Shown here piece by piece: positions 19,271-42,105 of a DNA stretch of 64,000 nucleotides. Made by a program: the position numbers and the translations under genes. The number at the start of each line of letters is the position of its first letter. The first letter of the stretch is position 1. The notes beneath the pieces were generated by a model, which did no database searches, had not been told where the DNA came from, and saw nothing but the letters and a program-made list of their open reading frames with translations. The stretch comes from Gammaproteobacteria bacterium (lineage in GTDB: Bacteria; Pseudomonadota; Gammaproteobacteria; SZUA-229), in the NCBI GenBank assembly GCA_026195255.1, contig JAPHSS010000026.1:15403-79402 (forward strand), in the 5' to 3' direction.

Positions 19271-21557
19271 GGCCGATTATAATCAAACAACACTCGAACA
19301 AGGGTGGCAAAATGCTCAGTCATTAAGAAGCAGTCTGAAATCAGGGCTCAGGGATGATGATGTAGAGCATAGTCATACGCCGTTAGTAAAAAGCGTATTG
19401 CGTCGTTCACCTTTGTTCTCACGTCGCAAAAACACGAGTTTAGTCAATCGCATTATCTGGCTCTTATTGGTCTGGAGTGTCGTAGTTTATATTTTGGGTG
19501 TGGCTGGTTTATGGTGGAGCACTAATAAAGTTATCAAAGATAATTTTTCTCAACAGGCGACAGACTGGGTTTCCAAACTCGATGAATTAGGTACGCCGTT
19601 ATATGCAGCAAATGATGAGTTTTTATTTCAGTCAATAGAAGAACAGGTTAGTCGCTTTCCCGAGGTATCTTATTTAAGGTATTACGAGGCAGAGAAAAAT
19701 TCAATTATCGCCCAGTATTCAGCTGATAATATGACGGATAAAAAAATACCTGAGTTAAACTCTGCGACAATAGAAAGGTTACGACTTAATATTGATTCTG
19801 CTAAACCCGTACTTATTCAAACTGCTGATGATAGCTCATCACTATTTCAGGTCGCCTCTTCTATAGTGACACGATCAATTCGCTCTGAGAGCATGCTTGA
19901 TTTTGATATTGAAGAAGATTCTAAAGAAAATTATAAAATAATAGGTTACCTGGAACTGGGATTAGACTTTAGTCATTACCAGGATAAATTAAAAAAGAAT
20001 ATATTTATAGGTAGTGTAGCCGTTGCGGTGCTTTTTCTAATAGCAGCATTTTTTGGGCGAATACTCATTAAACGTTCACTTCGACCATTAACCAGGATGC
20101 AAAAACCTTTAGAACAATTAGCAAACGGCAAAATTGATGTGCATGTTGATGGTGAAGGTGATGAAGAAATAGTTGCAATAGCAAATGCCTTAAACACAAC
20201 AATCAAGGCACTTAAAAGTAGAGATGAAGAGTTAAGAAAACTTGCAAATTATGATGCGTTAACTGGTTTATTAAATAAACATAACTTTAATATTCAGTTA
20301 AAACAGGAGATACAGCGGACGATTGATGAAGGTGATAGTAGTGCATTGCTGTTTATTGATCTGGATCAGTTTAAACATGTAAATGATAATCTTGGGCATG
20401 CGGCAGGTGACAGGTTATTAAAGCAGGTGGCTAACCTTCTAAAAATTAGAATAAGAACAGAAGATGTTATTTCGCGATTTGGTGGTGACGAATTTACTAT
20501 TATTGCTAAATCTATAGAAGAAAGCGATGCCCGAGTTATTGCCGAATCGATACTAAAGTCGATGCAGGAATTTGTTTTTGTAGAAGGTGGGCAGGCCTTT
20601 AATATCTATTGTTCAATTGGCGTGGTAATAATAAACGGAGATGACTTTACGGCTGAGGAGGTATTCTCTCAGGCAGACATGTCATGTTTTCATGCGAAAT
20701 CTGAAGGTCGTAATCGTTATCATATGTTTGATTTGCCAGAGCAGGAAGAACTTCGTAAAAGTGCAGATATAAGTTGGTCAAAAAGAATTAGTGATGCAAT
20801 TCAGAATGATTATTTTACACTTTTTTATCAGCCCATAGTTAGCCTGAATGGTGATAAGCACGAGCATTATGAAGTTTTGTTAAGAATGGTTATGGGTAAA
20901 GATGAAATTATTCACCCCAATGCTTTTTTGCCGGCAGCTGAACGACTAGGTGTAGCAATTGATATAGACTATTGGGTTGTACGAAATGCGCTTAGAAAGT
21001 TATCAGAGTTTAAAGCAGATGGACGGGATGTACATTTGTCTATTAACTTATCAGGCAGAATTTTTGAAGCAGCAGATTTAATTGACAAAATTAAACGTTA
21101 TATAACCCAGTATGATGTTGATACAGATCATGTTGTATTTGAAATCACTGAGCAAACAGCGGTGCATCATATTGAAAAAGCCTGCGAAACAATTCAGCAG
21201 TTATCTGCTTTGGGCTGTCAGTTTGCATTAGATGATTTTGGTGTAGGTTTCAGTTCATTTAACTATTTGAAACGATTGCCGGTTGATATTCTTAAAATTG
21301 ATGGGGAATTTATTACAGATATGGCAAAAGACCCTGTAGATCAGGCAATGGTGCAGTCAATGATTCAGATTGCAAAAACTTTAAATAAAAAAACCACTGC
21401 TGAATATGTTCAGGATGCTGCAACACTGGAGATGCTTAAACGTTTTGGTGCTGATTATGTTCAGGGGTATTACCTGGGTAAACCGATTCGAGACATTACC
21501 AGGCAGAACTATGATGATGCCCTGGTGCGTGTTGAAACAAATATTCTAACGTTCTGA
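19260..21557 (+). CDS. membrane sensor diguanylate cyclase/phosphodiesterase (2TM periplasmic domain-HAMP-GGDEF-EAL)
   Basis: Two TM segments; GGDEF motif RFGGDEF; EAL-domain motifs EVLLR and DDFGVG. Confidence 0.85.
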   Translation: MESRADYNQTTLEQGWQNAQSLRSSLKSGLRDDDVEHSHTPLVKSVLRRSPLFSRRKNTSLVNRIIWLLLVWSVVVYILGVAGLWWSTNKVIKDNFSQQATDWVSKLDELGTPLYAANDEFLFQSIEEQVSRFPEVSYLRYYEAEKNSIIAQYSADNMTDKKIPELNSATIERLRLNIDSAKPVLIQTADDSSSLFQVASSIVTRSIRSESMLDFDIEEDSKENYKIIGYLELGLDFSHYQDKLKKNIFIGSVAVAVLFLIAAFFGRILIKRSLRPLTRMQKPLEQLANGKIDVHVDGEGDEEIVAIANALNTTIKALKSRDEELRKLANYDALTGLLNKHNFNIQLKQEIQRTIDEGDSSALLFIDLDQFKHVNDNLGHAAGDRLLKQVANLLKIRIRTEDVISRFGGDEFTIIAKSIEESDARVIAESILKSMQEFVFVEGGQAFNIYCSIGVVIINGDDFTAEEVFSQADMSCFHAKSEGRNRYHMFDLPEQEELRKSADISWSKRISDAIQNDYFTLFYQPIVSLNGDKHEHYEVLLRMVMGKDEIIHPNAFLPAAERLGVAIDIDYWVVRNALRKLSEFKADGRDVHLSINLSGRIFEAADLIDKIKRYITQYDVDTDHVVFEITEQTAVHHIEKACETIQQLSALGCQFALDDFGVGFSSFNYLKRLPVDILKIDGEFITDMAKDPVDQAMVQSMIQIAKTLNKKTTAEYVQDAATLEMLKRFGADYVQGYYLGKPIRDITRQNYDDALVRVETNILTF

Positions 21558-27420: not shown

Positions 27421-27936
27421 CGCTCGGTTAACGATGCTTATTTTTGTGAAAAACACAGATAATTCAATGTATTAATCAGGCGTTATTCAGCTCCTGTTCT
27501 CAGCTTAAAAGTAAATAATTGAAGTGGCCAGCCACTTAAGTAAATTTTAATGTTACTTTTAAGGTCCGAAGTTTTGTAAGGAAAAAAGCATGTACTCGTA
27601 TTGATGCGATAATTATTTTTACCATGAAGATGAGTGACGAAGTGAATGCCTTAGCAAGATATTATTTATAAGTTATTGAATTTATTGATTTTATAAGATA
27701 GTGGGTTAAATGATCGGTGTCATGTTTAATTGCATGACATGATCGAGATACAAGATAGGGAAAAAAGCCTATATAGTATTAACCACGATAGATCTATAAC
27801 ATCATTCATGACTTAAATTTATATAATTAGTCAGGCATAACTGACTATATTTTGATGTTTTCAATATGAGCATTTGAATATCGATTAAATTATATAAAAA
27901 TATTTATGCTGAATCTTGACATGGTGGTAGTAATAG

Positions 27937-28770
27937 ATGGCTGACACAAGAGAATTTAAAGTGTTTCCTATAGGAATATCTGAGAATGATATTCAGATAC
28001 TTAAAAGGATACTCAGAGTGTCAACTGGTTCAGTTAGAAATTATGTTTTGACTGATGAAGAAAAATCAGTTCCAAATAAATTATATCTGGTTAATTCAGA
28101 TAACGACAAGGCAGTTTCTTACTGGGTTAAGAAATATCTGGGGTCTGATAAATTACCAACCGTAGCAACCGTTTTCGCCGGCAAGAGAAAGATTAATGGT
28201 GCAAGACTATATAATCTTAAAATGCCATTTTTAGCATCCCAGGTAATTAGTACTTTTGATACTGTCACTATAAAGGAAATGAATTTTATTCCAGAATTAA
28301 CGATTGGTGAGGTAATGGATGAGACCGCTTTATCTCATAGTTTTCTGGAAAACATAATTGATCGAAATTCAAATGGGAAAAATTTATTCAAAGCACTGGT
28401 AGTTGATGATAGTCAGCCAGTTAGAAAACAGCTTGAAATCGAACTAAAATTATTAGGTGCAGAAGTGGAGGCAGCATTTGATGGTAAAAAAGCAATAGAA
28501 TTATGTAGAGATAATGATTACGACATTATATTTTTAGATGTTGTGATGCCAGGAATGGATGGTTATAAAGTGTGTAAGTTTTTGAAAAAAAACACACAGA
28601 CCAAACATACCCCGGTAATAATGTTAACAGGTAAGTCATCACCATTTGACAAAGTTAAAGGCACCTTGTCAGGTTGTGATAGTTATTTAATAAAACCATT
28701 AAAAAGAGAGCAGTTTGAAAATATTGCAAGAAAATATATTCCTGATTTGAATGAAACGCAAAGAATGTGA
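27937..28770 (+). CDS. chemosensory response regulator with degenerate N-terminal pseudo-receiver plus canonical C-terminal receiver (FrzZ-like dual REC)
   Basis: C-terminal REC has all hallmark residues (VVDDS, FLDVVMPGMDG, LTG, IKP); the N-terminal ~140 aa has a receiver-like hydrophobic periodicity without a canonical acid pocket. Confidence 0.7.
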   Translation: MADTREFKVFPIGISENDIQILKRILRVSTGSVRNYVLTDEEKSVPNKLYLVNSDNDKAVSYWVKKYLGSDKLPTVATVFAGKRKINGARLYNLKMPFLASQVISTFDTVTIKEMNFIPELTIGEVMDETALSHSFLENIIDRNSNGKNLFKALVVDDSQPVRKQLEIELKLLGAEVEAAFDGKKAIELCRDNDYDIIFLDVVMPGMDGYKVCKFLKKNTQTKHTPVIMLTGKSSPFDKVKGTLSGCDSYLIKPLKREQFENIARKYIPDLNETQRM

Positions 28771-28865
28771 AAAAAACCTATTTATAAAAAATGGAAAGTA
28801 AACTAATTTATAACTGTAAGGGCTAGATAATAAATATTTAAGTTATAGACCGAGGAGAAAGTATC

Positions 28866-29231
28866 ATGGCAATTAATAAAGTATTACTAGTAGATGACTC
28901 ACCAATGGATTTGGCAAACATAAGGTGTATAGTTTCTGATGCTGGGTATTCTGTAGTAACAGCAACAACAGGAATTGAGGCAATTGAAGTCGCGAAAAAT
29001 GAAATGCCCGATTTAATATTTATGGATATAGTTATGGAAGGTGCAGATGGTTATGATGCATGTAGAGAAATAACACAAAATGGAGATACAAAAACTATAC
29101 CCGTGGTATTTGTATCAAGTAAAAATCAGAAGGCTGATAAGGTATGGGCAGAGCTACAGGGTGGCAAAGCTTTTATTACAAAGCCATATACGCCTGAACA
29201 GATTTTAGACCAGATAACAGCGCTTAATTAA
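28866..29231 (+). CDS. single-domain CheY-like response regulator (PilH-like)
   Basis: 121 aa, LLVDDSP...FMDIVM...TKP receiver signature. Confidence 0.8.
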   Translation: MAINKVLLVDDSPMDLANIRCIVSDAGYSVVTATTGIEAIEVAKNEMPDLIFMDIVMEGADGYDACREITQNGDTKTIPVVFVSSKNQKADKVWAELQGGKAFITKPYTPEQILDQITALN

Positions 29232-29263
29232 TTAAAACCATAAACCCATATACTAGTGAGACT

Positions 29264-29803
29264 ATGATTAATACAGAAAATAATTGCCTTGACCCTGAAA
29301 GCGCATTAAGTAGATTTAAAAAACCTGAGAATCTACTTATTAATGATCACGCAGAAGGCAAAAAAACTGCAATCAACAGGTATGGGTTTGTTGTTGAAAA
29401 CATGGGTTTATTGATATCAGAAAATACGCTAAGTGAAGTTGTTCGAAATAAAAATATCTGTCCTTTACCAAATACCAGAAAGTGGATGAAGGGCTTAATA
29501 AATATTCGTGGAAATCTGGTTCCAGTATATGATTTATCATTATTACTGGGTTTAACGTCAGTAAGCAGCAACTACAATAATGTACTGGTTTTGGGTAAAG
29601 GGGTTCGTTCAGTTGCAGTTGTAATTGAAGGCTTGCCACGACAGTGTAATGTAAGTGACTGGCATAAGATGGTTGACTTCCCCTGTGATATACCTGGTTT
29701 GAAAGATCACATAATTGAAGTTTATATGTCTGATAAAATTGTCTGGATGGATTTCAATCAGCATAGTTTTTTTGAATCAGTAAAAAGAAATGTGGTTATG
29801 TGA
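29264..29803 (+). CDS. CheW-like coupling protein (PilI-like)
   Basis: 179 aa, CheW core INIRGNLVPVYDL. Confidence 0.7.
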   Translation: MINTENNCLDPESALSRFKKPENLLINDHAEGKKTAINRYGFVVENMGLLISENTLSEVVRNKNICPLPNTRKWMKGLINIRGNLVPVYDLSLLLGLTSVSSNYNNVLVLGKGVRSVAVVIEGLPRQCNVSDWHKMVDFPCDIPGLKDHIIEVYMSDKIVWMDFNQHSFFESVKRNVVM

Positions 29804-29909
29804 TTAATTTAAATATAACTATAAATGTAATATGTTTTTAATGATAAGAGTGTTTTTTTATACATAAATCATTGTGTTTTTTTTAAAGCATTATCTGGAG
29901 AAGTTTAAT

Positions 29910-32075
29910 ATGAAATATTCAAATATTAACAAACTTGGCAAATTAGCTAATATAAAGATCACGCAAAAACTAATAGGCGTTGTTGTTGGTCTTTTAATTG
30001 GTTTTGTTATTATTGGTTTGGCTTACCAGAGGGTGCTACAGGCAGAAAGAGAGGCCGTTGAGGTTTCTGAAAAGATGGTGACATTTGAACGAGGTATCCA
30101 TGAGGTTCAGCTGGATCTTCTGAATGCCAGACAAAGTGAAACTGAATTTTATCTTAAAAAATATCCAATATTTTTAGGTAAATTTGATACGCGTATTATC
30201 GTTGCAAGTCAAAACCTGAAAGGTTTGACTAATCTGGTAAAAGGTGAGGATAAGTTAGATGTAATCACTGAATTAGGCGAGGCCTTCGAAAACTATCGAG
30301 ATAAGTTTATACAAGCCGCGGATTCGCAGATAGAAATTGGGCTAGATGAAAATACAGGCATGAATTCAAGCCTGGCTAATGCGTCTAAAGTTATTGAAAC
30401 TGTTCTTAAAAAACATAATGTGCCTGTTCTAGATAGATCGTTACTTAGAATGCGTCAACATTTAAGTGATTATATTAATTTTGAAGAACCCAGGTACAGT
30501 GAATTACTTATTAAAGAAATACAATCATTTAGAGCCGCAACTGAAAATTCTAAATTGTCTGCGCCAGTTAAATTAGAAATACGTAAAGCGCTTGCAAATT
30601 ATAAAAGTATATTTCTAACAATGTCTGAAACCGTTTCTATGTTAGCAGAGCAGAAAAAAGCAGTAAAACAATCGGTTAAGACAATCGAGCCCCTGTTTTC
30701 AAAAATGGTCAGCATTAGTAATGAGATAATTTCTACAACAAGAGAAGAAGCATCGGCAAAACGTAATCAGATTACAACGTTCTTTATATCTACACTTGTA
30801 CTTATTGCTGTAGCTGCATCCTTAGGTCTATTTTTTCTGGCGAGAAGTATTATTAAACCGATGAAAGTATTACAGGATACGGTTTTAAAGGTGAATGAAG
30901 GCGATTTAAACGTCAGGGCAGGGCTTGATCGTAAAGATGAGCTGGGAGATTTATCAAATGCACTTGATAAACTACTCGATGAAAAACTCGCCTCTATGGC
31001 GCAGTCTGAAAAAGAAAATGACAAGTTGAACGAGTCAGTAATTTCATTGATCAGGGCAGTTAGTCAGCTTGCACAGCAGAAAGACCTGGCAGTAAAAATT
31101 CCAGTTTCAGAGGATATTACCGGGGCGATAAGTGACTCATTAAATCTATTGGCCAAAGAAACTGCGAAAATAATGAAGGAAGCGCAGGTGACGTCATCTG
31201 AAGTTGCCAGTGTGTCATCGCTGGTTAAGAAACAATCAGATACGGTAATATCGGTTGCTAATACAGAAAGAAAAGAAGTTGAAAGTACTGCCCTGATGCT
31301 GGAAAGCTCAGTTAAGGCTATGAATGAAATTGCACTTAATTCTGAAGAAGCAAACAAGAAAGCTGAAATAACGAGTGTAAATACACAACAGGCACTGGAT
31401 GCTGTTATGTCATCTGCTGATGGTATCAAGTCGATACGTGACACTATTAGTGAGACAGAGAAACGAATTAAACGTCTGGGTGAGCGTTCACAGGAAATTT
31501 CAGGTATTGTAAGTTTGATTAACAGTATTGCAGAACGAACACATATACTGGCCTTGAATGCGAGTATGCATGCTGCATCTGCAGGTGAGGCGGGTCGAGG
31601 GTTTGCCGTGGTTGCCGATGAGGTGCAAAGGCTTGCGGAGAATGCGCGTGAAGCAACCTCAGAAATCTCAACGGTAGTTAACAATATAAGGGTTGAGACG
31701 GCTGATACTGTGGCTATTATGAATACTGTAATTACACAGGTGGCCGAGGGAACCCAGCTGGCTAATCAGGCTAGTCAGAGCATGAAACATACACAGCAAG
31801 CAACTAATGATCTGATCGGTTCGGTTAGGCATATAGCGAAAAGTTCTGAACAACAGGTCGATATTAGTAAGCAGTTATTAGTTCGAGCAAGAAGAATTAA
31901 AGAGAGCACAGAAGAGACCGGGCGAGAGTTATTAGAGCAGACAAAGAGTGCTGATAAGTTAGTGCGTTATTCTGAAGACCTGGTTGCAATCGTGGGCATA
32001 TTCAAACTACCGGCTATTAATAGCGAACAGGACGAAGAGGCGTATAAAACAAGCGAAATAAAGCAGGCAGTGTAA
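29910..32075 (+). CDS. methyl-accepting chemotaxis protein (PilJ-like, ~270-aa periplasmic domain, HAMP)
   Basis: ATG at 29910 with GGAG RBS; two TM helices; highly conserved MCP signalling domain [31 protein letters not shown]. Confidence 0.9.
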
Positions 32076-32105
32076 TATAAATAAAAGGCATGGCGCCTTA
32101 TTGGC

Positions 32106-35100
32106 TTGAATTATACAGGTATCGAGATGATTGATTCTGACATTGAAGGTAGTGAGTTAGGTACAGAGCAATTTGATGCGTTTTTTGCAGTAGCATCAAG
32201 ACTATCTGTAGATGCAGAGTGCGCTCATCTGGATTTAATGGATTATGATAAATATTTTTCTTCAATATGTGAGTTGTTGTTACCTTATAATCATGCGGTA
32301 TTTCAGGACCTGGCAAGCATTCTGTCAGAGGGGTTGAATAAAATAATTAATGAAAACAGACCCTTGATCGATAGTGAGTGTGTTTTTCTAAAAAGAATAC
32401 CTGAAATATTATCCGAATATGCCTTTATACCTGAAAGTAAAATTCCTGACTTACATCTTTTAAATCACTTTAAAAATGAATCATGGGTGCGTCCTGTCAA
32501 TACGGATGAAGAAAAAGTTTTGTTACATCACTTGCTTGATAAAACTAAAAAAGCCGTCGATTCGGAAGTGCAGGTGGATGAAGAAATATCTGAAGTATTA
32601 GAAGTCTCAAATCAGCAATATAATGATAAGTGTGAAATAGATATATCGGATATAGGCGCCGAGTTAGATGTTTCTATCAGTGATTTTGAAACTTCGGTAA
32701 ATAAGCCTGATGATAATCATAAAACCGATGATTGCGGTGCTCGTGCGGATGAGGAAGAGCCTGAAGTATCTGAGGTCTCAAATCAGCAATACAATGATCC
32801 ATCTGATATAGATATATCGGAGATAAGCGCTGAGTTAGATGTTTCTATCAGTAATTTTGAAGCCTCGGTAAATAAACTTGATGATAATCATAAAACCGAT
32901 GACTGCGGCGTTCAGGAGGGTGAAGCAGCATATGAAATATTAGAAGTCTCAAATCAGCAATACAGTGATCAATCCGATATAGATATATCAGAGTTAGGGG
33001 TTGAGTTAGATGCTTCCATTGGTGATTTAGCAGCGGTGATAAATAAGGATGTTAATGATTTTAAAATCGGTCTTGCAGAGTCACCGGAAGAGTTGAGTGA
33101 ATCAGACGACGCCGAAGGTGAGTTTAATATTGAAGATGCACTTGAGGTTTCCCGGTTTTATGAAGAAGATTCTGAATTAGAGACAAATGATTTTGAATCT
33201 GAATTATCACTAGATGATCTCGTTGCGGATGATGTTGGCTCATTTAAGGATGAAAATATAGTTAACATTGGTGATCTGGCGGAAGAGTATGAAAGTGACG
33301 ATCAACAAACAATAGAAATTAACCCAGAACAGAAAGAATTAATTGCTTTAATTGCAGAAGAGTTAATAGAGTTTAATCAGGATAAAGAATCGATTCTGGT
33401 TGATGCTGAGAAAAACACTGTAGACTTTAAAAACAATCTCTTATCCATAGCAGATCAAACTGAAAACATAAGAAATGCCATAGGTATTATTGGTTTGGAA
33501 GGTCTGTCAAATGTGACTGATTTTGTGTCAAAAAACATTCATGCCCTAGCTACAAACGATACAGTCCTGACGAGAGATCAGGTGGCTATGTTAGGTCAGT
33601 GGGCTGATTATATTCTTTCATATTTAAATGATATAGGTAATAAGCAGGTATGTGCTGACATTCTTCAGTTCATCAAAAAACCATTCTGGCCAGAGCTCAT
33701 GGAAGATGGTATTTCTGAATCTCTGGAGCAGTTATTGGTCAGTCCTCAGCTAAAAGAAGAAGAAAGGGAAGTTAGAAAAAATATTGCCTCACCTGAAGAC
33801 ATGTCATTAGTTTTGCCCGATGATGTTAATCCCGAGTTATTAGAAGGCTTGCTTCAAGATCTGCCAATACAAACCGGTGAGTTTTCTGTTGCGATTCATA
33901 ATTTATACGACCAGCATAATATTGAATATTTAGAAATAGCACAACGCATAGCACATACTCTTAAAGGTGCTGGTAATGTTGTCGGAGTGAAAGGCATTGC
34001 CAATCTGACGCATAATTTAGAAGATATACTAGAAATTCAGTTTAAAGCTAAGAAGTTGCCAGCTGGCGAGTTATTAGAGGCGTTAATAGATGCGGCGGAT
34101 TGCCTGGAAACAATGTCCGAAGCATTATTGGGTATTGATGAACCGCCCGATAATGCGCAATCAGTTTATCAGTCGGTATTAGACTGGGCTAATAAGCTAG
34201 ATGCGGATGGAGCCACATGCCTGGATCTAGCGGTTGCAAAGCGCAGTGATATTAAATTAGTTGAAGCTGAAGAAAAAAACGTTGCTAAAGAAGTAAGCTC
34301 GGCTGTTAAAAGTCCGCTTAATATTGAAAACATGTTGAGGGTGCCTGCTAAGCTCGCCGATGACTTACTAAGACTGGCTGGTGAGAATTTAATATCTACT
34401 TCTCAGATTCAGGAATACATTAAAATCATTCAAGCCAGATATAAAAATTTAAAACTGCAAGATCAGAGTTTACAGAAATTTTCCTACGATCTGGAGCATA
34501 TAGTTGATGTTCAGGGTATTTCAAATAGTGGCCCTATCAATAATGTAAGCAATGATGGTTTTGATTCGCTTGAACTTGATCAGTTTCATGAGTTGCACTC
34601 GATGAGCCGAAGGCTGGTTGAACTAGCGGCAGACTCAATTGAGTTAACTCAAATTCTTGAAAAAGACTTTTTAGAATTACAAAATCTAGTGGTAAATCAG
34701 GGTCAGCTACAAAAAGAAAATGAGCAGTTAGTTCTACGAACACGAATGGTACCTATCAGTACTATTGTGCCAAGATTAAAAAGAGGGGTTAAACAGGCAT
34801 CCAGGCTAACCGGAAAATCTGTTGATTTACATGTTGAAGATAATGATACATATATGGATAGCGAAGTTTTAAATAGCTTGATTGAGCCGTTAATGCATAT
34901 CCTTAGAAACTCGGTAGGTCATGGAATTGAAGATACCCAGGAAAGGCAGGAAAGAGGTAAAGTTAATCACGGTCAAATTAATCTGATTTTTTTACAAAGA
35001 GGAGATCAGATAGTTATCAAAATAACAGACGATGGAAGGGGTTTGAGTTTATCTGAAATAAAAAATAAGGCCATTTCACTGGGTTTGGTGAAATCTGAAA

Positions 35101-36137
35101 ATGAAGTTACAGAGCTTAATCTGCAAAACTTTATTCTTCAGCCCGGCTTTTCTACGCGTACTGAAGTTAACCAGATGTCAGGGCGAGGTATTGGTCTGGA
35201 TGTGGTTAATAGTAAAATTCGAGAATTAAAAGGTAGTATTGAAATACAGTCAGCGGAAGGCCAGGGTTGTCAGTTTCTTCTTACTTTACCCATATCTTCA
35301 TTTTCTGTTCATTCATTGTTGGTGCGAGTAAGAGAAAATATATATGCATTTTCAAACAGAGGTATTGAAGAGATTTTATACTCTGGATTAGGCGAACTAC
35401 AGAAGGTTGGTCATGAGACAATGTTTAAACTGGAGGATCAGTATTATAATATTTCAATGATCGAGTCTCTACTGAGTCTGCCAGAAGATAGAAGAGAAGG
35501 TGATCGTGATAATCGTCCGGTTATACTGGTTAAAGATGATACTGCATCACATACCGCTATCCTGGTACAGGATGTTATAGATAGTCGGGATGTTGTTGTT
35601 AAGTCAATGGGGGAATATATACCCAAAATACCAGGAATTATTGGGGCTACCGTTTTAGGTGACGGAAGTGTTGTTCCTGTAATTGATTTACCTGAATTGA
35701 TGCAATCCAGACAGATTATTGATAATACCTATACTGAAGAACATATTGTATTACATGAAGAAAAGAAACTGCCATATGTTTTAGTCGTTGATGACTCATT
35801 AAGTGCGAGAAAATCTCTGGCTCAGTTTGTAGAAGATCTCGGCCTTCAGGTGAGAACGGCTAGAGACGGAATGGAAGCGGTTTCATTAATTGAAGCTCGT
35901 AAACCTGATTTAATTCTGGTTGATATGGAAATGCCACGTATGAATGGTCTTGAGTTAACGGGGCATATCAGAGCATCTTCCATTACTCAAAATATGCCAG
36001 TTATCATGATTACTTCGCGATCAACAGATAAACACCGTAAAGCTGCAATGGATAAAGGTGTTGATCATTATATGGTCAAACCATTTGCTGAAGATGAGCT
36101 GGCCATTCAAATTAACTCTGCTTTAAAAACTGCATGA
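32106..36137 (+). CDS. hybrid CheA-type histidine kinase (acidic repeat region-Hpt-HATPase-CheW-REC; ChpA/WspE-like)
   Basis: Hpt HTLKGAG; N box HILRNSVGHGIE; G1 DDGRGL; G2 GRGIGLD; CheW-like domain; C-terminal receiver VLVVDDS...LVDMEMP; three 57-aa tandem repeats in the N-terminal region; the ORF starts on TTG, with an alternative ATG at 32127. Confidence 0.9.
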   Translation: MNYTGIEMIDSDIEGSELGTEQFDAFFAVASRLSVDAECAHLDLMDYDKYFSSICELLLPYNHAVFQDLASILSEGLNKIINENRPLIDSECVFLKRIPEILSEYAFIPESKIPDLHLLNHFKNESWVRPVNTDEEKVLLHHLLDKTKKAVDSEVQVDEEISEVLEVSNQQYNDKCEIDISDIGAELDVSISDFETSVNKPDDNHKTDDCGARADEEEPEVSEVSNQQYNDPSDIDISEISAELDVSISNFEASVNKLDDNHKTDDCGVQEGEAAYEILEVSNQQYSDQSDIDISELGVELDASIGDLAAVINKDVNDFKIGLAESPEELSESDDAEGEFNIEDALEVSRFYEEDSELETNDFESELSLDDLVADDVGSFKDENIVNIGDLAEEYESDDQQTIEINPEQKELIALIAEELIEFNQDKESILVDAEKNTVDFKNNLLSIADQTENIRNAIGIIGLEGLSNVTDFVSKNIHALATNDTVLTRDQVAMLGQWADYILSYLNDIGNKQVCADILQFIKKPFWPELMEDGISESLEQLLVSPQLKEEEREVRKNIASPEDMSLVLPDDVNPELLEGLLQDLPIQTGEFSVAIHNLYDQHNIEYLEIAQRIAHTLKGAGNVVGVKGIANLTHNLEDILEIQFKAKKLPAGELLEALIDAADCLETMSEALLGIDEPPDNAQSVYQSVLDWANKLDADGATCLDLAVAKRSDIKLVEAEEKNVAKEVSSAVKSPLNIENMLRVPAKLADDLLRLAGENLISTSQIQEYIKIIQARYKNLKLQDQSLQKFSYDLEHIVDVQGISNSGPINNVSNDGFDSLELDQFHELHSMSRRLVELAADSIELTQILEKDFLELQNLVVNQGQLQKENEQLVLRTRMVPISTIVPRLKRGVKQASRLTGKSVDLHVEDNDTYMDSEVLNSLIEPLMHILRNSVGHGIEDTQERQERGKVNHGQINLIFLQRGDQIVIKITDDGRGLSLSEIKNKAISLGLVKSENEVTELNLQNFILQPGFSTRTEVNQMSGRGIGLDVVNSKIRELKGSIEIQSAEGQGCQFLLTLPISSFSVHSLLVRVRENIYAFSNRGIEEILYSGLGELQKVGHETMFKLEDQYYNISMIESLLSLPEDRREGDRDNRPVILVKDDTASHTAILVQDVIDSRDVVVKSMGEYIPKIPGIIGATVLGDGSVVPVIDLPELMQSRQIIDNTYTEEHIVLHEEKKLPYVLVVDDSLSARKSLAQFVEDLGLQVRTARDGMEAVSLIEARKPDLILVDMEMPRMNGLELTGHIRASSITQNMPVIMITSRSTDKHRKAAMDKGVDHYMVKPFAEDELAIQINSALKTA

Positions 36138-36138
36138 T

Positions 36139-36642
36139 ATGACAGATTTACAATTTAAAAATAAATTACTAAGAGATGATGCTAAATATCATGTTTCGAT
36201 ATTGTCTTTTGCGGGTATTAAGTTAATTGTTCCGCAAAGTGAAATCCTCTCTATTGAGAGTATTTACGAATTAGAAAGTAATGAAGATAATGACAATAAT
36301 TACATAGGTGTGATTTATAAACAGGGAATCAAACTTCCCGTATATTGCTTTTCAAAATCTATGGATATATATAAATCCTTACCTGAAGACCGCTTTCAAT
36401 GTGTGGTACTTCAGCATGAAAATATTATGTTTTCATTGCTTTGTTATGAAATTAGCAATGCAGTTATTAGTGAAATTGAATTTCATAACTTACCAGTATG
36501 CATGAATAATAAGCGTATTCCATTAACCCACTTATGTTTATATAAAGATGCAGAAAATATAAATAAGTTAGGAATGGTGACCAGCGCTGTTTGTTTAAAC
36601 GAGTATATTAATAAACTAAAACGTCACTCCATGAAGCTTTAA
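36139..36642 (+). CDS. degenerate CheW-like small protein
   Basis: 167 aa; the hydrophobic pattern matches the CheW fold (GVIYKQGIKLPVYCF resembles GvxNLRGxxxPVxDL); call is tentative. Confidence 0.4.
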   Translation: MTDLQFKNKLLRDDAKYHVSILSFAGIKLIVPQSEILSIESIYELESNEDNDNNYIGVIYKQGIKLPVYCFSKSMDIYKSLPEDRFQCVVLQHENIMFSLLCYEISNAVISEIEFHNLPVCMNNKRIPLTHLCLYKDAENINKLGMVTSAVCLNEYINKLKRHSMKL

Positions 36643-36644
36643 TT

Positions 36645-37112
36645 ATGAAAACAGATAATAATGATAGTGGTGTCGCTGCCTGGTTGCTACAGGTAGACAG
36701 GCTTGTTAATGTGGCCATTGGGCAGTTTGAACTTATCCATATAATCGATGAACCAGACTATATGGGGATACCTCAAGCCCCTGATTACTGTAAGGATGTT
36801 GTTTTATGGAACAACAATATAGTACCGGTAATGAGTTTGGCGTCATGGTTAACCTCTTGCTTACAGGTCGATAACACAGGCGTGGTTGCTATCGTTGTAT
36901 ATGAAGATGAGCAGGGTAAACATAAGTTTGGTGGAATAAAGCTTAGCAGCCCACCAGTTCAGGCCAAAGTGAAGAATAGCCAGCAATGCCAGCTAACAGA
37001 CGATTTTGATAAGTGGCGAAAAGTGTCGCTCTCGAGCTTTAAGTCTAAAACTGGCGATATTGTGCCTATAATTGATGTCAGTAAACTGTTTTCACATGTA
37101 TTATTGAGTTAA
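36645..37112 (+). CDS. degenerate CheW-like small protein
   Basis: 155 aa; VVLWNNNIVPVMSLASWL and IVPIIDVSKLF match the CheW core signature. Confidence 0.5.
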   Translation: MKTDNNDSGVAAWLLQVDRLVNVAIGQFELIHIIDEPDYMGIPQAPDYCKDVVLWNNNIVPVMSLASWLTSCLQVDNTGVVAIVVYEDEQGKHKFGGIKLSSPPVQAKVKNSQQCQLTDDFDKWRKVSLSSFKSKTGDIVPIIDVSKLFSHVLLS

Positions 37113-37230
37113 CAACCGTTATGTCGATAGAAGAATGTCGATAGTAACCTAAATGATAAAAGATAGATAAATCTGAAATGTCTCTAACATAAGAGAGTAA
37201 TGGCGTAAAACCTGCTCTCAGGAGTTATGT

Positions 37231-37878
37231 ATGAAGTTGAATACAGAGAAAACTAGACTTTTATTAGTAGATGATCACGCAATAGTCAGGGCGGGATTTA
37301 GATATTTACTTGAAAGTGACGCTGATTATGACATTCTTGAAGCCGATTCGGCTGAAGAGGCGTGTAAAGTCTATGGTGATTATAAGCCAGATGCGGTAAT
37401 AATGGATTTAATGATGCCAGGAATGGGGGGGCTGGAAGGTTTAAGGCATTTAAATGCAAAAGATAGAAATGCCAAAATACTCGTTCTAAGTATGCGGGAT
37501 GATCTTGCATATGTGACCAGAGCTACTCTTGCAGGGGCTACCGGATATTTAACTAAACGCAGTGCAGCTGAAGAGCTTGTTAAAGCAGTAAATGTGGTAA
37601 TAAAAGGTCAGCATTATCTGAGTGCTGATATATGCGAATCAAATCGTAATGAACCTTATGTATCTGAAGAAGATAAAATTAAAGGCTTAACAGAGCGTGA
37701 GTTTGAAATATTTTGTTTACTTGCTGAAGGTAAAACAGTAACAACAATATCAGTAGATCTACACTTGAGCCCAAAGACGGTTAGTAATCATAGAACACGC
37801 ATTATGCATAAACTCAAAACATCAAACATTGTTGAGTTAACGCATTTAGCTATTCGTAATGGTTTAGTCGAAGCGTAA
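37231..37878 (+). CDS. NarL/FixJ (LuxR)-family response regulator, putative pathway output
   Basis: REC (LLVDDHAIV...IMDLMMPGMGG) plus C-terminal LuxR HTH (LTEREFEIF...TVSNHR). Confidence 0.85.
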   Translation: MKLNTEKTRLLLVDDHAIVRAGFRYLLESDADYDILEADSAEEACKVYGDYKPDAVIMDLMMPGMGGLEGLRHLNAKDRNAKILVLSMRDDLAYVTRATLAGATGYLTKRSAAEELVKAVNVVIKGQHYLSADICESNRNEPYVSEEDKIKGLTEREFEIFCLLAEGKTVTTISVDLHLSPKTVSNHRTRIMHKLKTSNIVELTHLAIRNGLVEA

Positions 37879-37890
37879 TCGTTTTAAATA

Positions 37891-38586
37891 TTATATCGTT
37901 TCATTACTGGTGGTTAAGCGGTTTAGTAATAACTGAGTGAATCTTTGTCTTCTATTAATAACTAAATAAGCATTTTTTATTAGATAATTAATAATAGCAT
38001 CAACAGATTCATCAATAGTTAAAAGTGAAGTGTCAATGATTATTTCGGCTGATTCTGGTGCTTCGTAAGGCGAATCAATACCTGTGAAGTGTTTTATCTC
38101 GCCGGCCCGTGCTTTCTTATATAAACCTTTTACGTCTCGATTTTCACATAAGTCTAAAGGGCATTTTATATATATCTCAATAAACTCTGTTTCATTAACA
38201 ATATTTCTGACGCATTTTCTATCTTTAAGAAATGGAGATATAAATGTTGCAAGAACCATTACACCTGCATCGATAAAGAGTTTAGAGACTTCACCAATAC
38301 GGCGTATATTCTCAGTCCGGTCATTATCACTAAAGCCAAGGTCATTACTTAGACCGTGTCGAACATTATCACCATCCAGCAGATAAGTTCGAAAGGCCTC
38401 CTTATGGAGTCGCTGCTCTAGCGCATTGGCTATTGTGGTCTTTCCTGAGCCTGACAGGCCGGTAAACCAGATTATGGCAGATCTTTGTTTGTTCAGGTTG
38501 TCTCTACGGTCTTTGGTTACGTTAACTTCACTCCAAACCACATCACTTGATTTCTTTTGTTCAATGTTTACTGACTCATTCTTCAT
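37891..38586 (-). CDS. cysC: Adenylylsulfate (APS) kinase
   Basis: P-loop GLSGSGKTT and typical APS-kinase sequence. Confidence 0.85.
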
Positions 38587-38924
38587 AACTCACCTGCACC
38601 TGCGTTGCGTCTATAGACAAATGTTATAAGTTAAGAGCTTATAAAAATGTCTTATAAAAAGAATATATTAAATATTTAATTTTGGCATAGGAAAAACTCC
38701 TTATCTTAATGGTTTCGTTAAAATAACCCGGATTAGGCAACCGAGAGACTAGCTTGCGGTGAGCGCGTAGGAAAAATTCCCTTTCTTGGAAAATAGTGTA
38801 TGTTTTATAGGAGTAATGCCTATACTGTTAATCACGATGAAATATGTTTTGTAATTTCGTTATATAAATACTTTATGAGGATTCAGTGTTTTCTGGGTGT
38901 TTATATAGAGCTGTAGGTTGATTT

Positions 38925-40157
38925 ATGAGTGTTAATGCCAATGAATGCCTTGCACAGGGGCGGCCATCATTATTGTCTTTATTCTGGATTTTTCTAAAAA
39001 TAGGTAGTACCGCTTTTGGTGGTTTCATGGCCCTCATATCGGTTGTACAAAACTATCTGGTCAATAGAAAAAAACTATTGTCAGATGAAGAAATGCTTGA
39101 CGGGATTTCTTTAGCAACCATCTTACCTGGCCCGGTTGCTGTCAATGTGGTTGCTTATGCAGGTTATAAAATTCGTGGCATTTCTGGCGCCATTGTATGT
39201 GCTGTCGCAGTAATATTACCTTCTTTTTTCCTTATTTTATTTCTAAGTTATGCCTATTTTTCCTGGGGTGATATGCCTGCAGTGGATAGTGTATTTAAAG
39301 GTTTTTTACCTGCAGTCGCCGCAGTTATAGTCGCAACAGTAATCAATATGGGGAAAAAATCCTTAACTGGATTTAAAGAAACAACAATTGCTGCAATAGC
39401 TGTAGCTGTTCTCGTGCTGATTGGTGGTTTTTTCAGCACCCTGGCAATTATATTATGTGCAGGGCTGGCAGGCTTGTTATTATTTAAAAATCATAAAGAT
39501 GTGGTTCAGGTAGATAATATTAAAGCTTCACCAAAAGAAGAGAAATCACATCTTAAACAGTTTCCAATACTCATACTGGCATTTATTGCAGTATGTGCAT
39601 TACTTCTAACAGCGCCATATATCATCAGTTCCAGTACTTTTATGGCGGCTAAACTATTAGCTACATTTTCCGGTATGAGTTTGCTTTTATTTGGTGGGGG
39701 GTTTGTTTTTATACCCTTAATGCAGGAGTCAGTAGTTGAAACCTATCACTGGATAACACATCAGGAATTTATTGATGCTATTGCTATGGGGCAGATAACA
39801 CCAGGGCCAATATTAATAAGTGCGACATTCATTGGTTATAAAGTAGCAGGCGTATTTGGCGCGGCAACGGCAACAATCGGAATATTCACGCCACCTGCAA
39901 TGTTAATGCTTGTGTGTACGCATTATTTACAGTTATTAAAAGAATCAATTTATTTGAAGGCAATATTAAAGGGTATTCGGTGTGCTGTGATAGGCATGAT
40001 TTTAGCGGCGGCTTATTTTGTAGCCATGTCTTCGGAAATAAATGTGGTAACTAGCGGAATATTTATTCTGTCAATGATTGCTCTCCTTAAATTTAAACTT
40101 GAAGTGGTATGGATTATACCTGCGTCAGGTTTAATTGGGCTTATAGCCTTTTCCTGA
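38925..40157 (+). CDS. chrA: ChrA-family (chromate/sulfate-like anion) transporter
   Basis: 410 aa, ~12 TM, duplicated CHR-domain pattern. Confidence 0.7.
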   Translation: MSVNANECLAQGRPSLLSLFWIFLKIGSTAFGGFMALISVVQNYLVNRKKLLSDEEMLDGISLATILPGPVAVNVVAYAGYKIRGISGAIVCAVAVILPSFFLILFLSYAYFSWGDMPAVDSVFKGFLPAVAAVIVATVINMGKKSLTGFKETTIAAIAVAVLVLIGGFFSTLAIILCAGLAGLLLFKNHKDVVQVDNIKASPKEEKSHLKQFPILILAFIAVCALLLTAPYIISSSTFMAAKLLATFSGMSLLLFGGGFVFIPLMQESVVETYHWITHQEFIDAIAMGQITPGPILISATFIGYKVAGVFGAATATIGIFTPPAMLMLVCTHYLQLLKESIYLKAILKGIRCAVIGMILAAAYFVAMSSEINVVTSGIFILSMIALLKFKLEVVWIIPASGLIGLIAFS

Positions 40158-40232
40158 GTTTTTAATGTTCTCGCCTAACTAGTGAGATGGTAGTTTTATT
40201 TTAATAACAATAACTTATATTTGGAGTAAAAA

Positions 40233-41240
40233 ATGGAACCTGTTTTTATGATTGGTACGCAACGATCTGGTTCAAACCTGCTGAGATTAATGTTAAATCA
40301 ACTTACCGATATTGCTTCACCCCATCCACCGCATATTCTAGAACGCATGATGCCTTTAATGAGTTCTTATGGAAGTCTTGAGAACGACGCCAGTTTCAAA
40401 ATGTTAGTTGATGATGTGTGCAGGCTGGTTGAATTAAACCCGGTTGAGTGGAGTGGTGTTAAGTTTGATAGAGAAAGCATAATTTCGAAGTCTTCAGAAA
40501 GAAGTTTAATGGCTGTTTACCATGCAGTATATGATGCGTATGCTGAAGCCCAGAATGCTAAAACATGGTGCTGTAAGAGTCTGGCTAATATTAAATATAG
40601 AAATGAAATTAAAGATTATTTCAAGCACCCTAAATTTATTTATTTATACCGTGATGGCCGTGATGTCGCTCTGTCATTTCAGAAAGCCGTTGTTGGTGAA
40701 AAGCATATCTATAACATCGCAAAAGACTGGGCTGATACACAAGCCATGGCTTTGAATTTAAAATCATCTGTGGATGAGAAATATTTTCATTCTATTAGTT
40801 ATGAGCAGTTAACGCAGAACCCGGAAGAGTCAGCCAAAGCGCTTTGCAAATTTTTAGGCGCAAAATATGTACCTGAAATGCTTGATTTTCATAAAACAAA
40901 TGAAGCTAAAAATGCTGCCCAGTCGAGTGAGCTGTGGGGTAATGTAACAAGTCCAATTTTGAAAAATAATAGTAAGAAATATAAAAATGAAATGTCTGAA
41001 AAGGATGTTCGAATATTTGAGTCAGTAGCGGGTCCAATGCTTGATTGTTTAGGTTATGAGCGAGATTTTATTCCCATAGGTGAAGAGCAGGTGTTTGCAA
41101 AAGGTGATATTGATAGCTTTAACAAACAGAATAAAAAACAGAAAATAGAAAACATGTCAAAAGTAGATGAAAACGATAAAAAAAGAAGAGAAAGGCAGGC
41201 TAAACTGTTAGAAGAAATAAAATCAAGATCTGCTGCTTAA
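40233..41240 (+). CDS. PAPS-dependent sulfotransferase family protein
   Basis: N-terminal 5'-PSB-loop IGTQRSGSN typical of bacterial sulfotransferases (Stf0/Sulfotransfer_3-like). Confidence 0.7.
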   Translation: MEPVFMIGTQRSGSNLLRLMLNQLTDIASPHPPHILERMMPLMSSYGSLENDASFKMLVDDVCRLVELNPVEWSGVKFDRESIISKSSERSLMAVYHAVYDAYAEAQNAKTWCCKSLANIKYRNEIKDYFKHPKFIYLYRDGRDVALSFQKAVVGEKHIYNIAKDWADTQAMALNLKSSVDEKYFHSISYEQLTQNPEESAKALCKFLGAKYVPEMLDFHKTNEAKNAAQSSELWGNVTSPILKNNSKKYKNEMSEKDVRIFESVAGPMLDCLGYERDFIPIGEEQVFAKGDIDSFNKQNKKQKIENMSKVDENDKKRRERQAKLLEEIKSRSAA

Positions 41241-41277
41241 GTCTACAATGTTTACCGGTTAAACGGGAGAATTAGTA

Positions 41278-42105
41278 ATGTTAAAGATGAATTTTAAACG
41301 GATTTCAGTGTTGTTATTAGTGTTAATTTATCCGCTGGAGGCGCTGTCTGATTATCTGTTTACAGCGCCACCAAGAGAGAGCCCTGAACGGGGCGCTGAA
41401 ATATATAAACCGATTGCTGATTTTCTAACTAAATCTACAGGTGAGCGGTTTATATATAAGCAGCCTTCGAGTTGGGCTGAATATAGTCAGGCTATGCAAA
41501 ATAAAGAATATGACCTGGTTTTTGACGGGCCACATTTTGTTAGCTGGCGAATTGAATATATTCAACATGATGTGCTGGCAAAATTACCTCAGCTGCATAT
41601 ATGGCGCGTTATCGTAAGAGCTGACGCGCCGGGCATTAATAACCTGGATGATTTAGTTGGCAAAAAAGTCTGTGCTCCCAAGTCGCCCAATTTCGGCATG
41701 TTGACGATGATGAGTCATTATACTAACCCGGAAAAAGAACCGATTCATATTATTACAAAGGGCTGGAAAGGCGCGTTTAACGCGGTTGTCGAAGGCAAGT
41801 GTGTTGCAGCCGTGATACCCAAAACAAATCATCGCAAGTTTGACCCGGATCTGAAAAAAACAAAAGCGCTACACACCCATCTGCCCTATCCAAACCAGGC
41901 TTTTACGGCGGGAGCGGGCATAACACCTAACTTGAAATCTAAAATAGCTAAAGAGCTGTTGTCTCCGGAAGGTCAGAGCGCATTATCACACTTACGTGAT
42001 AGGTTTACCCGTGGTGCCTTGTTGGTAAGTGCCGATAATGAAGAGTATGAGGGTATTAGTATGGTCTTAAAAAGAGCTGATAATTTCAGAAGTGCAGCAA
42101 AGTAA
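41278..42105 (+). CDS. orphan PhnD/SsuA-like periplasmic substrate-binding protein
   Basis: Signal peptide; periplasmic-binding-protein-like sequence; no adjacent permease or ATPase. Confidence 0.45.
   Translation: MLKMNFKRISVLLLVLIYPLEALSDYLFTAPPRESPERGAEIYKPIADFLTKSTGERFIYKQPSSWAEYSQAMQNKEYDLVFDGPHFVSWRIEYIQHDVLAKLPQLHIWRVIVRADAPGINNLDDLVGKKVCAPKSPNFGMLTMMSHYTNPEKEPIHIITKGWKGAFNAVVEGKCVAAVIPKTNHRKFDPDLKKTKALHTHLPYPNQAFTAGAGITPNLKSKIAKELLSPEGQSALSHLRDRFTRGALLVSADNEEYEGISMVLKRADNFRSAAK

Follow-up and report, generated by a model that had tools for sequence, protein, structure and literature searches.

A seven-gene chemosensory unit related to Pil-Chp, probably methylation-independent, and an adjoining NarL-type regulator in a gammaproteobacterial contig

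Does a run of eight chemosensory-type genes encode a single signalling pathway that ends in a DNA-binding regulator, or a seven-gene pathway with such a regulator as its neighbour? The genes lie at 27937-37878 of a 64,000-nucleotide stretch (the window) of contig JAPHSS010000026.1 (assembly GCA_026195255.1, Gammaproteobacteria), positions 15,403 to 79,402 of the forward strand. An earlier interpretation made from the letters alone (the sequence-only reading) had favoured a single pathway of eight genes with a LuxR-type output. We find that genes 1-7 are one operon and form a seven-gene chemosensory unit that recurs in many other genomes, and that the eighth gene is restricted to one lineage, where its orthologs are paired with a PAS-HisKA_3 kinase. 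The explanation that we prefer, and to which we assign a probability of roughly 0.62, is that genes 1-7 are a methylation-independent paralog of the Pil-Chp system that likely controls pili, and that gene 8 is a separate two-component regulator whose kinase has been lost.

The eight genes are as follows.

27937-28770, + strand: gene 1, response regulator of 277 aa at the PilG position; pseudo-receiver (∼residues 5-115), linker, canonical REC (residues 152-265)
28866-29231, + strand: gene 2, single-domain CheY-like regulator at the PilH position (Pfam REC, E 1.5e-24)
29264-29803, + strand: gene 3, CheW adaptor at the PilI position (Pfam CheW, E 1.9e-15)
29874-32075, + strand: gene 4, transmembrane chemoreceptor (Pfam HAMP and MCPsignal)
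32106-36137, + strand: gene 5, hybrid CheA-type kinase of 1343 aa (Pfam Hpt, HATPase_c, CheW (P5) and REC)
36139-36642, + strand: gene 6 (W2), cysteine-rich divergent CheW-fold protein of 167 aa (AlphaFold model and Foldseek)
36645-37112, + strand: gene 7 (W3), divergent CheW-like protein of 155 aa (Pfam CheW, 34 bits against a cut-off of 23.5)
37231-37878, + strand: gene 8, NarL/FixJ-type response regulator (Pfam REC, E 4.9e-27; GerE, E 3e-18)

All eight are present on the plus strand in an open reading frame (ORF) listing of the window, with the coordinates that the sequence-only reading had given them. Domains were called with Pfam and, for gene 6, additionally from an AlphaFold (AF2) model searched with Foldseek against the PDB. 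The genes are real, and the original gene list and domain calls needed small corrections only.

A seven-gene unit and its neighbour

Genes 1-7 (27937-37112) are separated by gaps of 1 to 95 bp. Gene 8 follows on the same strand 118 bp beyond gene 7, with no terminator predicted between the two, and a convergent gene on the other strand, cysC, lies 12 bp from gene 8. A scan of a genome collection with an alignment of the gene 1 family as the query returned 80 loci (cited below by L numbers), whose ORFs were labelled with the window proteins. The order pseudoREC-REC regulator, CheY, CheW, receptor, hybrid kinase, W2 and W3 was found in about half of them (∼40 of 80), in gammaproteobacterial metagenome-assembled genomes (MAGs) and in Thiotrichaceae, Competibacteraceae, Chromatiaceae, Ectothiorhodospiraceae, Methyloprofundus, Rhodocyclales and a betaproteobacterial MAG. 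It is kept in L005 despite a kinase that is just 39% identical to that of the window, and genes 1-5 alone occur in further loci (Cellvibrionaceae, Saccharophagus, Thiocystis, Chromatium, Undibacterium and HTCC5015). Homologs of gene 1 number more than 800, some of them named PilG by the Joint Genome Institute (JGI), and the gene 6 family, conserved beside the kinase gene, falls into 379 clusters when grouped at 50% identity, with all proteins 150-170 aa long. Given these family sizes and a gene order shared by ∼40 loci, the system is therefore an established and widespread one and not a quirk of one genome.

Among the 80 loci, gene 8 follows the cluster solely in the window's own marine-sediment lineage. 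It has the full domain set of a NarL/FixJ regulator and a complete active site as read from its sequence (D14, D15, D59, S87, K109), and its best PDB matches are VraR, NarL and EvgA; identity as a UvrY/GacA equivalog was rejected, the NCBIfam model NF007018 giving 168 bits where 280 is required. When metagenomes were scanned with aligned gene 8 orthologs as the query, two earlier-branching loci emerged, L088 and L089, in which W2 and W3 are followed by a kinase of 689-691 aa and a regulator 72% identical to gene 8, the gaps along W3, kinase and regulator being only 18 and 41 bp. After the regulator come cysC on the opposite strand and a chromate-transporter-family gene. Kinases of the type found in L088 and L089 have PAS, HisKA_3 and HATPase domains, and HisKA_3 kinases are the type that partners NarL-family regulators. 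The position of the PAS-HisKA_3 kinase between W3 and the regulator in these two loci therefore identifies gene 8 as what is left of a neighbouring two-component system, its response regulator. Gene 8 resembles other NarL/FixJ systems in its domains, in its catalytic residues and in having orthologs directly after such a kinase; unlike them, the window has no adjacent HisKA_3 kinase gene.

The same kinase stands directly after W3 in seven further loci (L009, L011, L012, L017, L021, L022 and L034). In a bootstrapped neighbour-joining (NJ) analysis the kinase- or regulator-associated loci form one group (100/100), within which the kinase-less loci, the window among them, are a nested clade (99/100), and tblastn found neither the kinase nor a remnant of it in the window or in its kinase-less relatives. 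The kinase was lost once, in the window's subclade, and the simplest history is one in which a two-component pair had settled beside the operon in a single lineage before that one deletion of the kinase gene. Gene 8 itself is conserved at 64-97% identity across the kinase-less clade. The alpha-1 helix carries partner-specificity residues in this regulator superfamily, and that of gene 8 does not differ between loci that have the kinase and loci that lack it, which gives no indication of a switch to another partner. In L087, where W2 and W3 are deleted, a very AT-rich spacer of 578 bp (L087:8920-9496) separates the kinase from the NarL-type regulator, and the regulator can therefore be its own transcription unit. 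We conclude that gene 8 is a neighbour of the chemosensory unit, neither a conserved member of it nor its designed output. What had been read as an eight-gene pathway with a LuxR-type output is thus a conserved unit of seven genes beside a lineage-restricted regulator whose orthologs are paired with a PAS-HisKA_3 kinase.

Downstream of gene 8, at 37891-42105, the window carries cysC (encoding an adenosine 5'-phosphosulfate (APS) kinase, minus strand), a chromate-transporter-family gene, a sulfotransferase gene and a gene for a PhnD-like binding protein. These genes are the regulator's neighbours in this lineage only and are not all present in each contig; relatives have subsets of them (cysC in L013, the transporter gene in L014 and L015, the PhnD-like gene only in L090). 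The suggestion that the pathway signals to a sulfated surface product had come from adjacency alone, and we do not retain it, as these neighbours are lineage-restricted and variable and nothing found here links them to the chemosensory kinase. Gene 8 probably controls nearby genes, its targets possibly being the cysC/transporter/sulfotransferase group or the operon itself, and its phosphodonor would be encoded elsewhere in the genome.

Components of the unit and their kinship to Pil-Chp

The impression that the gene order recalls Pil-Chp is supported. On four contigs (L043, L055, L056 and L058) a canonical Pil-Chp cluster, with a 134-aa PilG, a 128-aa PilH, PilI, PilJ, an ∼1535-aa ChpA and a ChpC-like CheW, lies immediately upstream of a pseudoREC-type cluster. 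PilG, PilH, PilI, PilJ and ChpA of L043 and L055 each score highest against the window gene at the same position, the 134-aa PilG against gene 1 and the 128-aa PilH against gene 2. Outside its own family the best matches of gene 5 are proteins named ChpA by JGI (E 1e-108 to 1e-78), above the Helicobacter CheAY type. In an NJ tree built from kinase cores, the pseudoREC-type sequences make up a single clade apart from canonical ChpA, with which the canonical copies from the same contigs fall; the family is nearer to ChpA than to the Helicobacter type, in a tree from which the alternative cellular function (ACF) and most F classes are absent. The presence of both systems on four contigs, together with their separate clades, argues for an old paralog of Pil-Chp and not an ortholog, and by these comparisons genes 1-7 are probably an ancient paralog of the type IV pilus (Tfp) class. 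This agrees with the sequence-only reading, which had denied the system orthology with canonical Pil-Chp, Wsp or Frz and had proposed a kinase-core phylogeny and a receptor heptad check; these gave a clade separate from ChpA and a receptor of 40-heptad (40H) length, by tree and alignment rather than by class models. Some basal Gammaproteobacteria are known to carry multiple Tfp-class operons (PMC13599512).

The Pil-Chp cluster of Pseudomonas aeruginosa (pilG-pilH-pilI-pilJ-pilK-chpA-chpB-chpC-chpD-chpE) shares with the window, in matching order, two CheY-like regulators, a CheW, a 40H receptor, a hybrid CheA that has a C-terminal receiver and lacks P2, and one or more CheW-like adaptors, and its chpD is a precedent for a gene for a DNA-binding regulator at the cluster end. 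A receiver-bearing hybrid CheA that lacks a P2 domain is a common form in the Tfp and ACF classes, the multi-Hpt version being predominant in Tfp (PMC10782961). Unlike Pil-Chp, the window has a PilG-like protein with an N-terminal pseudo-receiver, neither PilK nor ChpB, a kinase with one His-bearing Hpt and two His-less modules in contrast to the many Hpt domains of canonical ChpA, two extra CheW-fold proteins where Pil-Chp has one ChpC (that of L043 matches neither), and a receptor whose periplasmic domain has no PilJ-domain match.

The PilG-position protein, gene 1, ends in a canonical receiver (Pfam REC, residues 154-262) with the catalytic residues D157, D158, D201, T231 and K253. Its N-terminal ∼115 aa had no Pfam match. 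A profile of this domain built from 81 diverse family members aligned over its full length with a PilH-type REC profile (hhalign probability 93.8%, E 1.8e-7); one built from close homologs only showed no similarity to REC (probability 0.1%). Because the acidic pair is missing and an asparagine (Asn53) occupies the acceptor position, we regard the domain as a pseudo-receiver; the Lys position is likewise not conserved. The AF2 model (predicted local distance difference test (pLDDT) score 78.6) shows an alternating beta-alpha pattern in this domain. The original description of gene 1 as a degenerate plus a canonical REC is thus upheld by the hhalign and Pfam results. A PATAN (DUF4388) identity for the N-terminus was rejected, Pfam being blank for residues 1-155 at E values up to 5, and a plasmid search with gene 1 returned distant response regulators only (24-25% identity).

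Gene 2 has the full set of catalytic residues, as read from its sequence, and gene 3 keeps its position across related loci. Gene 4 comprises two transmembrane segments, a periplasmic domain of ∼250 aa, a HAMP domain and a 40H-type signalling domain. The last matches the length of the 40H receptors CtpM (308 vs 309 positions) and PcaY (247 vs 247) and is 21-28 residues, or about four heptads, longer than that of the 36-heptad (36H) Escherichia coli receptors Tsr and Tar; the protein is therefore best placed, by alignment length and not by class-specific models, in the 40H class. Its cytoplasmic domain contains no match to the methylation-site consensus. The true start of gene 4 is probably the ATG at 29910, where close homologs start, and that of gene 5, by the same kind of comparison, probably the ATG at 32127.

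Gene 5 consists, in order, of an Hpt-like module (∼32-135), acidic 57-aa repeats, a second Hpt-like module (∼433-537), a true Hpt (His617), a dimerisation region, HATPase, P5/CheW and the C-terminal REC; no P2 domain was found by Pfam. The two Hpt-like modules are copies of one module (hhalign probability 99.4%, E 1.5e-21). Module 2 aligns weakly with the true Hpt (probability 66%) and has no His at the phosphorylation position. The kinase had been called single-Hpt, which is correct for His-bearing domains (one, vs four or more in canonical ChpA) but overlooks the two His-less modules. The repeat region noticed in the same reading is real:

32571-33016, + strand: tandem repeat within gene 5, 171-bp unit in 2.6 copies (Tandem Repeats Finder score 598), encoding an acidic linker

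Asp and Glu together make up 31% of residues 140-400. Among close homologs the kinase ranges from 1220 to 1343 aa, and the 171-bp repeat probably accounts for much of this variation.

Gene 6 is below the Pfam gathering score for CheW (PF01584; E 0.022, 14.8 bits vs 23.5). The top 18 PDB matches that Foldseek found for its AF2 model (pLDDT 75) are all CheA-P5 or CheW, with probability 1.00 and E values down to 1.7e-5, and we therefore assign it the CheW fold. In its family 141 of 144 cluster representatives have Cys102, 124 have Cys88 and 102 have Cys121, Pro119 and Met122 are each conserved in more than 94%, and there are ∼5 cysteines per protein as compared to ∼2 in PilI-like CheW. This conservation hints that the adaptor holds a redox or metal site. 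Gene 7 is 29% identical to its counterpart in L005 (E 4e-23), and its position after W2 is conserved; direct paralogy between genes 6 and 7 was undetectable by BLASTP (E 0.16). Both had been described as tiny, highly degenerate CheW-like proteins, and although they are indeed divergent, at 167 and 155 aa they are of ordinary CheW size.

As had been claimed, neither CheR nor CheB is encoded in the window, of which most ORFs of at least 100 aa, including every ORF of CheR or CheB size, were covered by Pfam, by annotated counterparts on near-identical contigs or by PDB sequences (the last gave TolA and CpoB). None was found either among the families shared by 200 neighbouring ORFs of related loci (100 upstream, and 100 in-cluster or downstream). 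This lack had been treated as atypical, but it is found in described systems. The Pil-Chp systems of Acinetobacter baylyi and A. baumannii are without the methyltransferase and methylesterase genes (pilK and chpB) and have working pilus control (PMC9596432, PMC8088505), and cyanobacterial Tax systems are without CheR and CheB (bioRxiv 10.1101/2021.06.11.447907). Missing adaptation enzymes thus have precedents, and a DNA-binding output is not a feature of the family. Acinetobacter differs in having a canonical single-domain PilG and no chpC, the window adding adaptors and a pseudo-receiver. In three relatives whose gene 1 is 60-65% identical (L014:2-3557, and also L008 and L015), the tail of a flagellar-type che cluster lies 6-8 kb upstream of the pseudoREC cluster, with a MotB-like gene, a ParA-like ATPase, a ParP-like CheW, a CheW and DUF2802; CheR and CheB are therefore probably encoded elsewhere in the genome of this lineage.

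Two further systems resemble the window in the first gene. In cyanobacterial Tax/Pix/Pil loci the first gene encodes a two-domain regulator with a non-phosphorylatable N-terminal domain (in cyanobacteria an output module), the second a plain CheY, and the kinase is a hybrid CheA, with no CheR or CheB; the PATAN-REC regulators of these loci bind PilB and PilC via the N-terminal domain (bioRxiv 10.1101/2021.06.11.447907). Unlike these loci, the window has a REC-derived N-terminus instead of PATAN, no photosensory receptor domain and two extra CheW-fold genes. The DrdR protein of Xanthomonas campestris (XC_3845), like gene 1, is ∼280 aa long and has no output domain beyond its two receivers, an inactive pseudo-receiver at the N-terminus and a functional one at the C-terminus, and it binds and stimulates PilB and PilT (PMC13507683). 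The two share the numbering of Thr231 and Lys253, with acidic residues spaced 3-7 positions differently, a likeness by description and not by alignment; unlike gene 1, DrdR is an orphan outside any chemosensory cluster. In the papers searched, the combination of a pseudo-receiver-fused PilG-like regulator, two His-less Hpt-like modules and two divergent CheW-fold proteins is undescribed.

Predicted signal flow and competing explanations

The phosphotransfer routes, pilus target and sink mechanism that we infer would be as follows. The 40H transmembrane receptor would bind a periplasmic signal and control the hybrid kinase jointly with three adaptors, the PilI-like CheW and the pair of divergent CheW-fold proteins; the kinase would autophosphorylate at His617 in its sole His-bearing Hpt. 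From there the phosphoryl group would pass to the PilG-like regulator, to the PilH-like regulator and to the kinase's own C-terminal receiver. The output is likely gene 1, in which a phosphorylated true receiver would alter what the pseudo-receiver binds, and its most likely target would be the type IV pilus motor, in parallel to PilG, cyanobacterial PATAN-REC proteins and Xanthomonas DrdR. Without CheR and CheB, signal termination and adaptation would depend on the PilH-like protein and the kinase receiver as phosphate sinks.

Several observations weigh against this account. The pseudo-receiver call is a profile alignment plus a predicted fold, and structure search matched the true receiver only. 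The Tfp class is provisional, its basis being best matches and an NJ tree without all classes rather than MiST models. The window holds no pilus gene, and in the neighbour census pilus genes are not enriched beside related clusters, only that of L005 adjoining pilC-pilD. As the cluster stands beside canonical Pil-Chp on four contigs, this second system could equally serve something else. Gene 8, for its part, adjoins the cluster in every contig of its lineage even as the downstream neighbours vary, and two or three unrelated lineages have GerE (LuxR-type) regulators beside the cluster. The points about pili would suit an ACF pathway unrelated to pili, like Pil-Chp by common descent only, whose tandem-receiver regulator might act on cyclic diguanylate (c-di-GMP) turnover, exopolysaccharide production or cell-cell behaviour. 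Sharing a contig with canonical Pil-Chp suggests that the two systems are non-redundant; PilZ-domain, rhodopsin-like and solute-binding genes stand beside some clusters, and in the window a GGDEF-EAL gene lies 6 kb upstream. We nevertheless consider such a pathway unlikely, for the nearest characterised relative of each core component belongs to Pil-Chp, both the cyanobacterial two-domain regulators encoded first in their loci and the tandem-receiver DrdR act on the pilus motor (bioRxiv 10.1101/2021.06.11.447907; PMC13507683), and the L005 cluster directly follows pilC-pilD. At the opposite extreme, the operon would be an ordinary Pil-Chp ortholog minus pilK and chpB, of which Acinetobacter provides an example (PMC9596432); the gene order is identical and JGI labels some homologs PilG or ChpA. 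This is very improbable given a kinase clade that is separate from, and co-occurs on single contigs with, canonical ChpA, the additional domain on the PilG-like protein, one His-bearing Hpt where canonical ChpA has four or more, and two additional CheW-fold genes.

The points about gene 8 bear on whether the eight genes are after all one pathway with a transcriptional output, the hybrid kinase phosphorylating gene 8 either by original design or by adoption after the kinase was lost, and gene 8 controlling the adjacent cysC/transporter/sulfotransferase genes or other targets. A regulator kept at 64-97% identity in the kinase-less clade is under selection and needs a phosphodonor, and Hpt domains are generally permissive donors. 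Gene 8 is moreover always next after the cluster in its lineage while what lies downstream varies, it is on the same strand as gene 7 at 118 bp with no predicted terminator, LuxR-type regulators stand beside the cluster in other lineages, and a Pil-Chp cluster that includes a regulator gene, chpD, has been described (PMC9596432). However, gene 8 is missing from the cluster in most lineages, its orthologs have a dedicated HisKA_3 kinase, the alpha-1 helix, being the same whether or not that kinase is present, speaks against a switch to a new partner, and L087 retains the regulator behind its 578-bp spacer. The LuxR proteins that flank other clusters differ in architecture from gene 8 and sit upstream of the gene 1 homolog (L063, L066, L071, L072 and L074). 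One group of them has a Ser/Thr kinase with a cyclic-nucleotide (cNMP)-binding domain and a GerE-only protein directly upstream, and in Undibacterium (L059:6424-9541) a CHASE-PAS-HisKA kinase and a REC-GerE regulator are upstream; such recurrent flankers may control operon expression. We thus find a single eight-gene pathway improbable, even if a functional tie is possible because gene 8 is inseparable from the cluster in its lineage and LuxR-type flankers occur elsewhere. Equally speculative, and improbable as well, is the specific scenario in which the chemosensory kinase took over gene 8 after loss of the PAS-HisKA_3 kinase, so that the receptor array now drives transcription directly, perhaps of targets that could include the adjacent cysC/transporter/sulfotransferase genes. 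A reading milder than this takeover is that of an uncharacterised second pilus-control system with a pseudo-receiver output and a baseplate whose cysteine-rich CheW is possibly redox-sensing.

Knowledge of pilus-type chemosensory systems comes mostly from Pseudomonas Pil-Chp and the cyanobacterial Tax loci. The family described here is a widespread and apparently unstudied sister lineage in sulfur oxidisers, Competibacter, methanotrophs, Cellvibrionaceae and others, and it differs in the parts that are debated, namely the route from a PilG-type regulator to its target (here a fused pseudo-receiver), extra CheW paralogs and adaptation without methylation. Its array has three adaptors, one of them cysteine-rich. 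Thiobaca and Thiorhodococcus are cultured carriers, and these questions are therefore open to testing. The loss of the neighbouring kinase provides a clean comparative setting, in which a regulator lost its partner beside a promiscuous Hpt donor; a takeover of gene 8, if true, would be a natural and datable rewiring of a two-component regulator onto a chemosensory pathway. For annotation, the lesson is that conservation should be checked before a regulator gene at the end of a block is counted as the output of the pathway.

Flanks of the operon and accessory genes

The longest gap within or beside the block lies 5' of gene 1:

27421-27936, + strand: AT-rich intergenic region of 516 bp

By its position, the sole basis for the assignment, it is presumed to hold the operon promoter. 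A consensus scan gave promoter-like and terminator-like sites at no higher frequency than shuffled sequence did, and tRNA-Lys was the sole RNA match in an Rfam scan. The block is flanked by housekeeping genes, with aspS and nadA upstream and ruvCAB and tol-pal downstream. A HAMP-GGDEF-EAL gene (19260-21557) is found 6 kb upstream of the operon, and in L014 a REC-PAS-GGDEF-EAL gene is located upstream of the cluster.

Relatives of the operon carry additional genes of two kinds. In many lineages solute-binding protein genes stand between the PilI-like and receptor genes (L024, L027, L032, L033, L041, L043, L045, L052, L071 and others); they belong to Peripla_BP_6 (11 of 100 neighbours), SBP_bac_3 (3 of 100) or, in L005, NMT1_2, and are sometimes accompanied by short dCache fragments. 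Their insertion suggests ligand sensing through periplasmic binding proteins; the window operon has no inserted solute-binding protein gene. In Chromatiaceae (Thiorhodococcus, Chromatium okenii and Thiocystis), a gene for a seven-helix rhodopsin-like protein of 252-254 aa lies after the ChpA-like kinase gene, either immediately or with one gene between (L077:13350-14114, L078:17942-18706 and L082:7911-8669, and also L084). It matches Pfam Bac_rhodopsin, has a Lys in a 'DIVNK' motif in the last helix and belongs to a branch without W2 and W3. In these purple sulfur bacteria it may feed light signals into a pilus-type chemosensory system.

The nearest genome to that of the window is the MAG JAPHRB01 'N1D-Bin_4', whose gene 1 is 97% identical. 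The window also carries a SoxA/TsdA-type cytochrome c gene (52671-53564, minus strand) and has a guanine-cytosine content of ∼39%, and related contigs come from sediment or hydrothermal sources; together these suggest an uncultured, sulfur-oxidising marine gammaproteobacterium.

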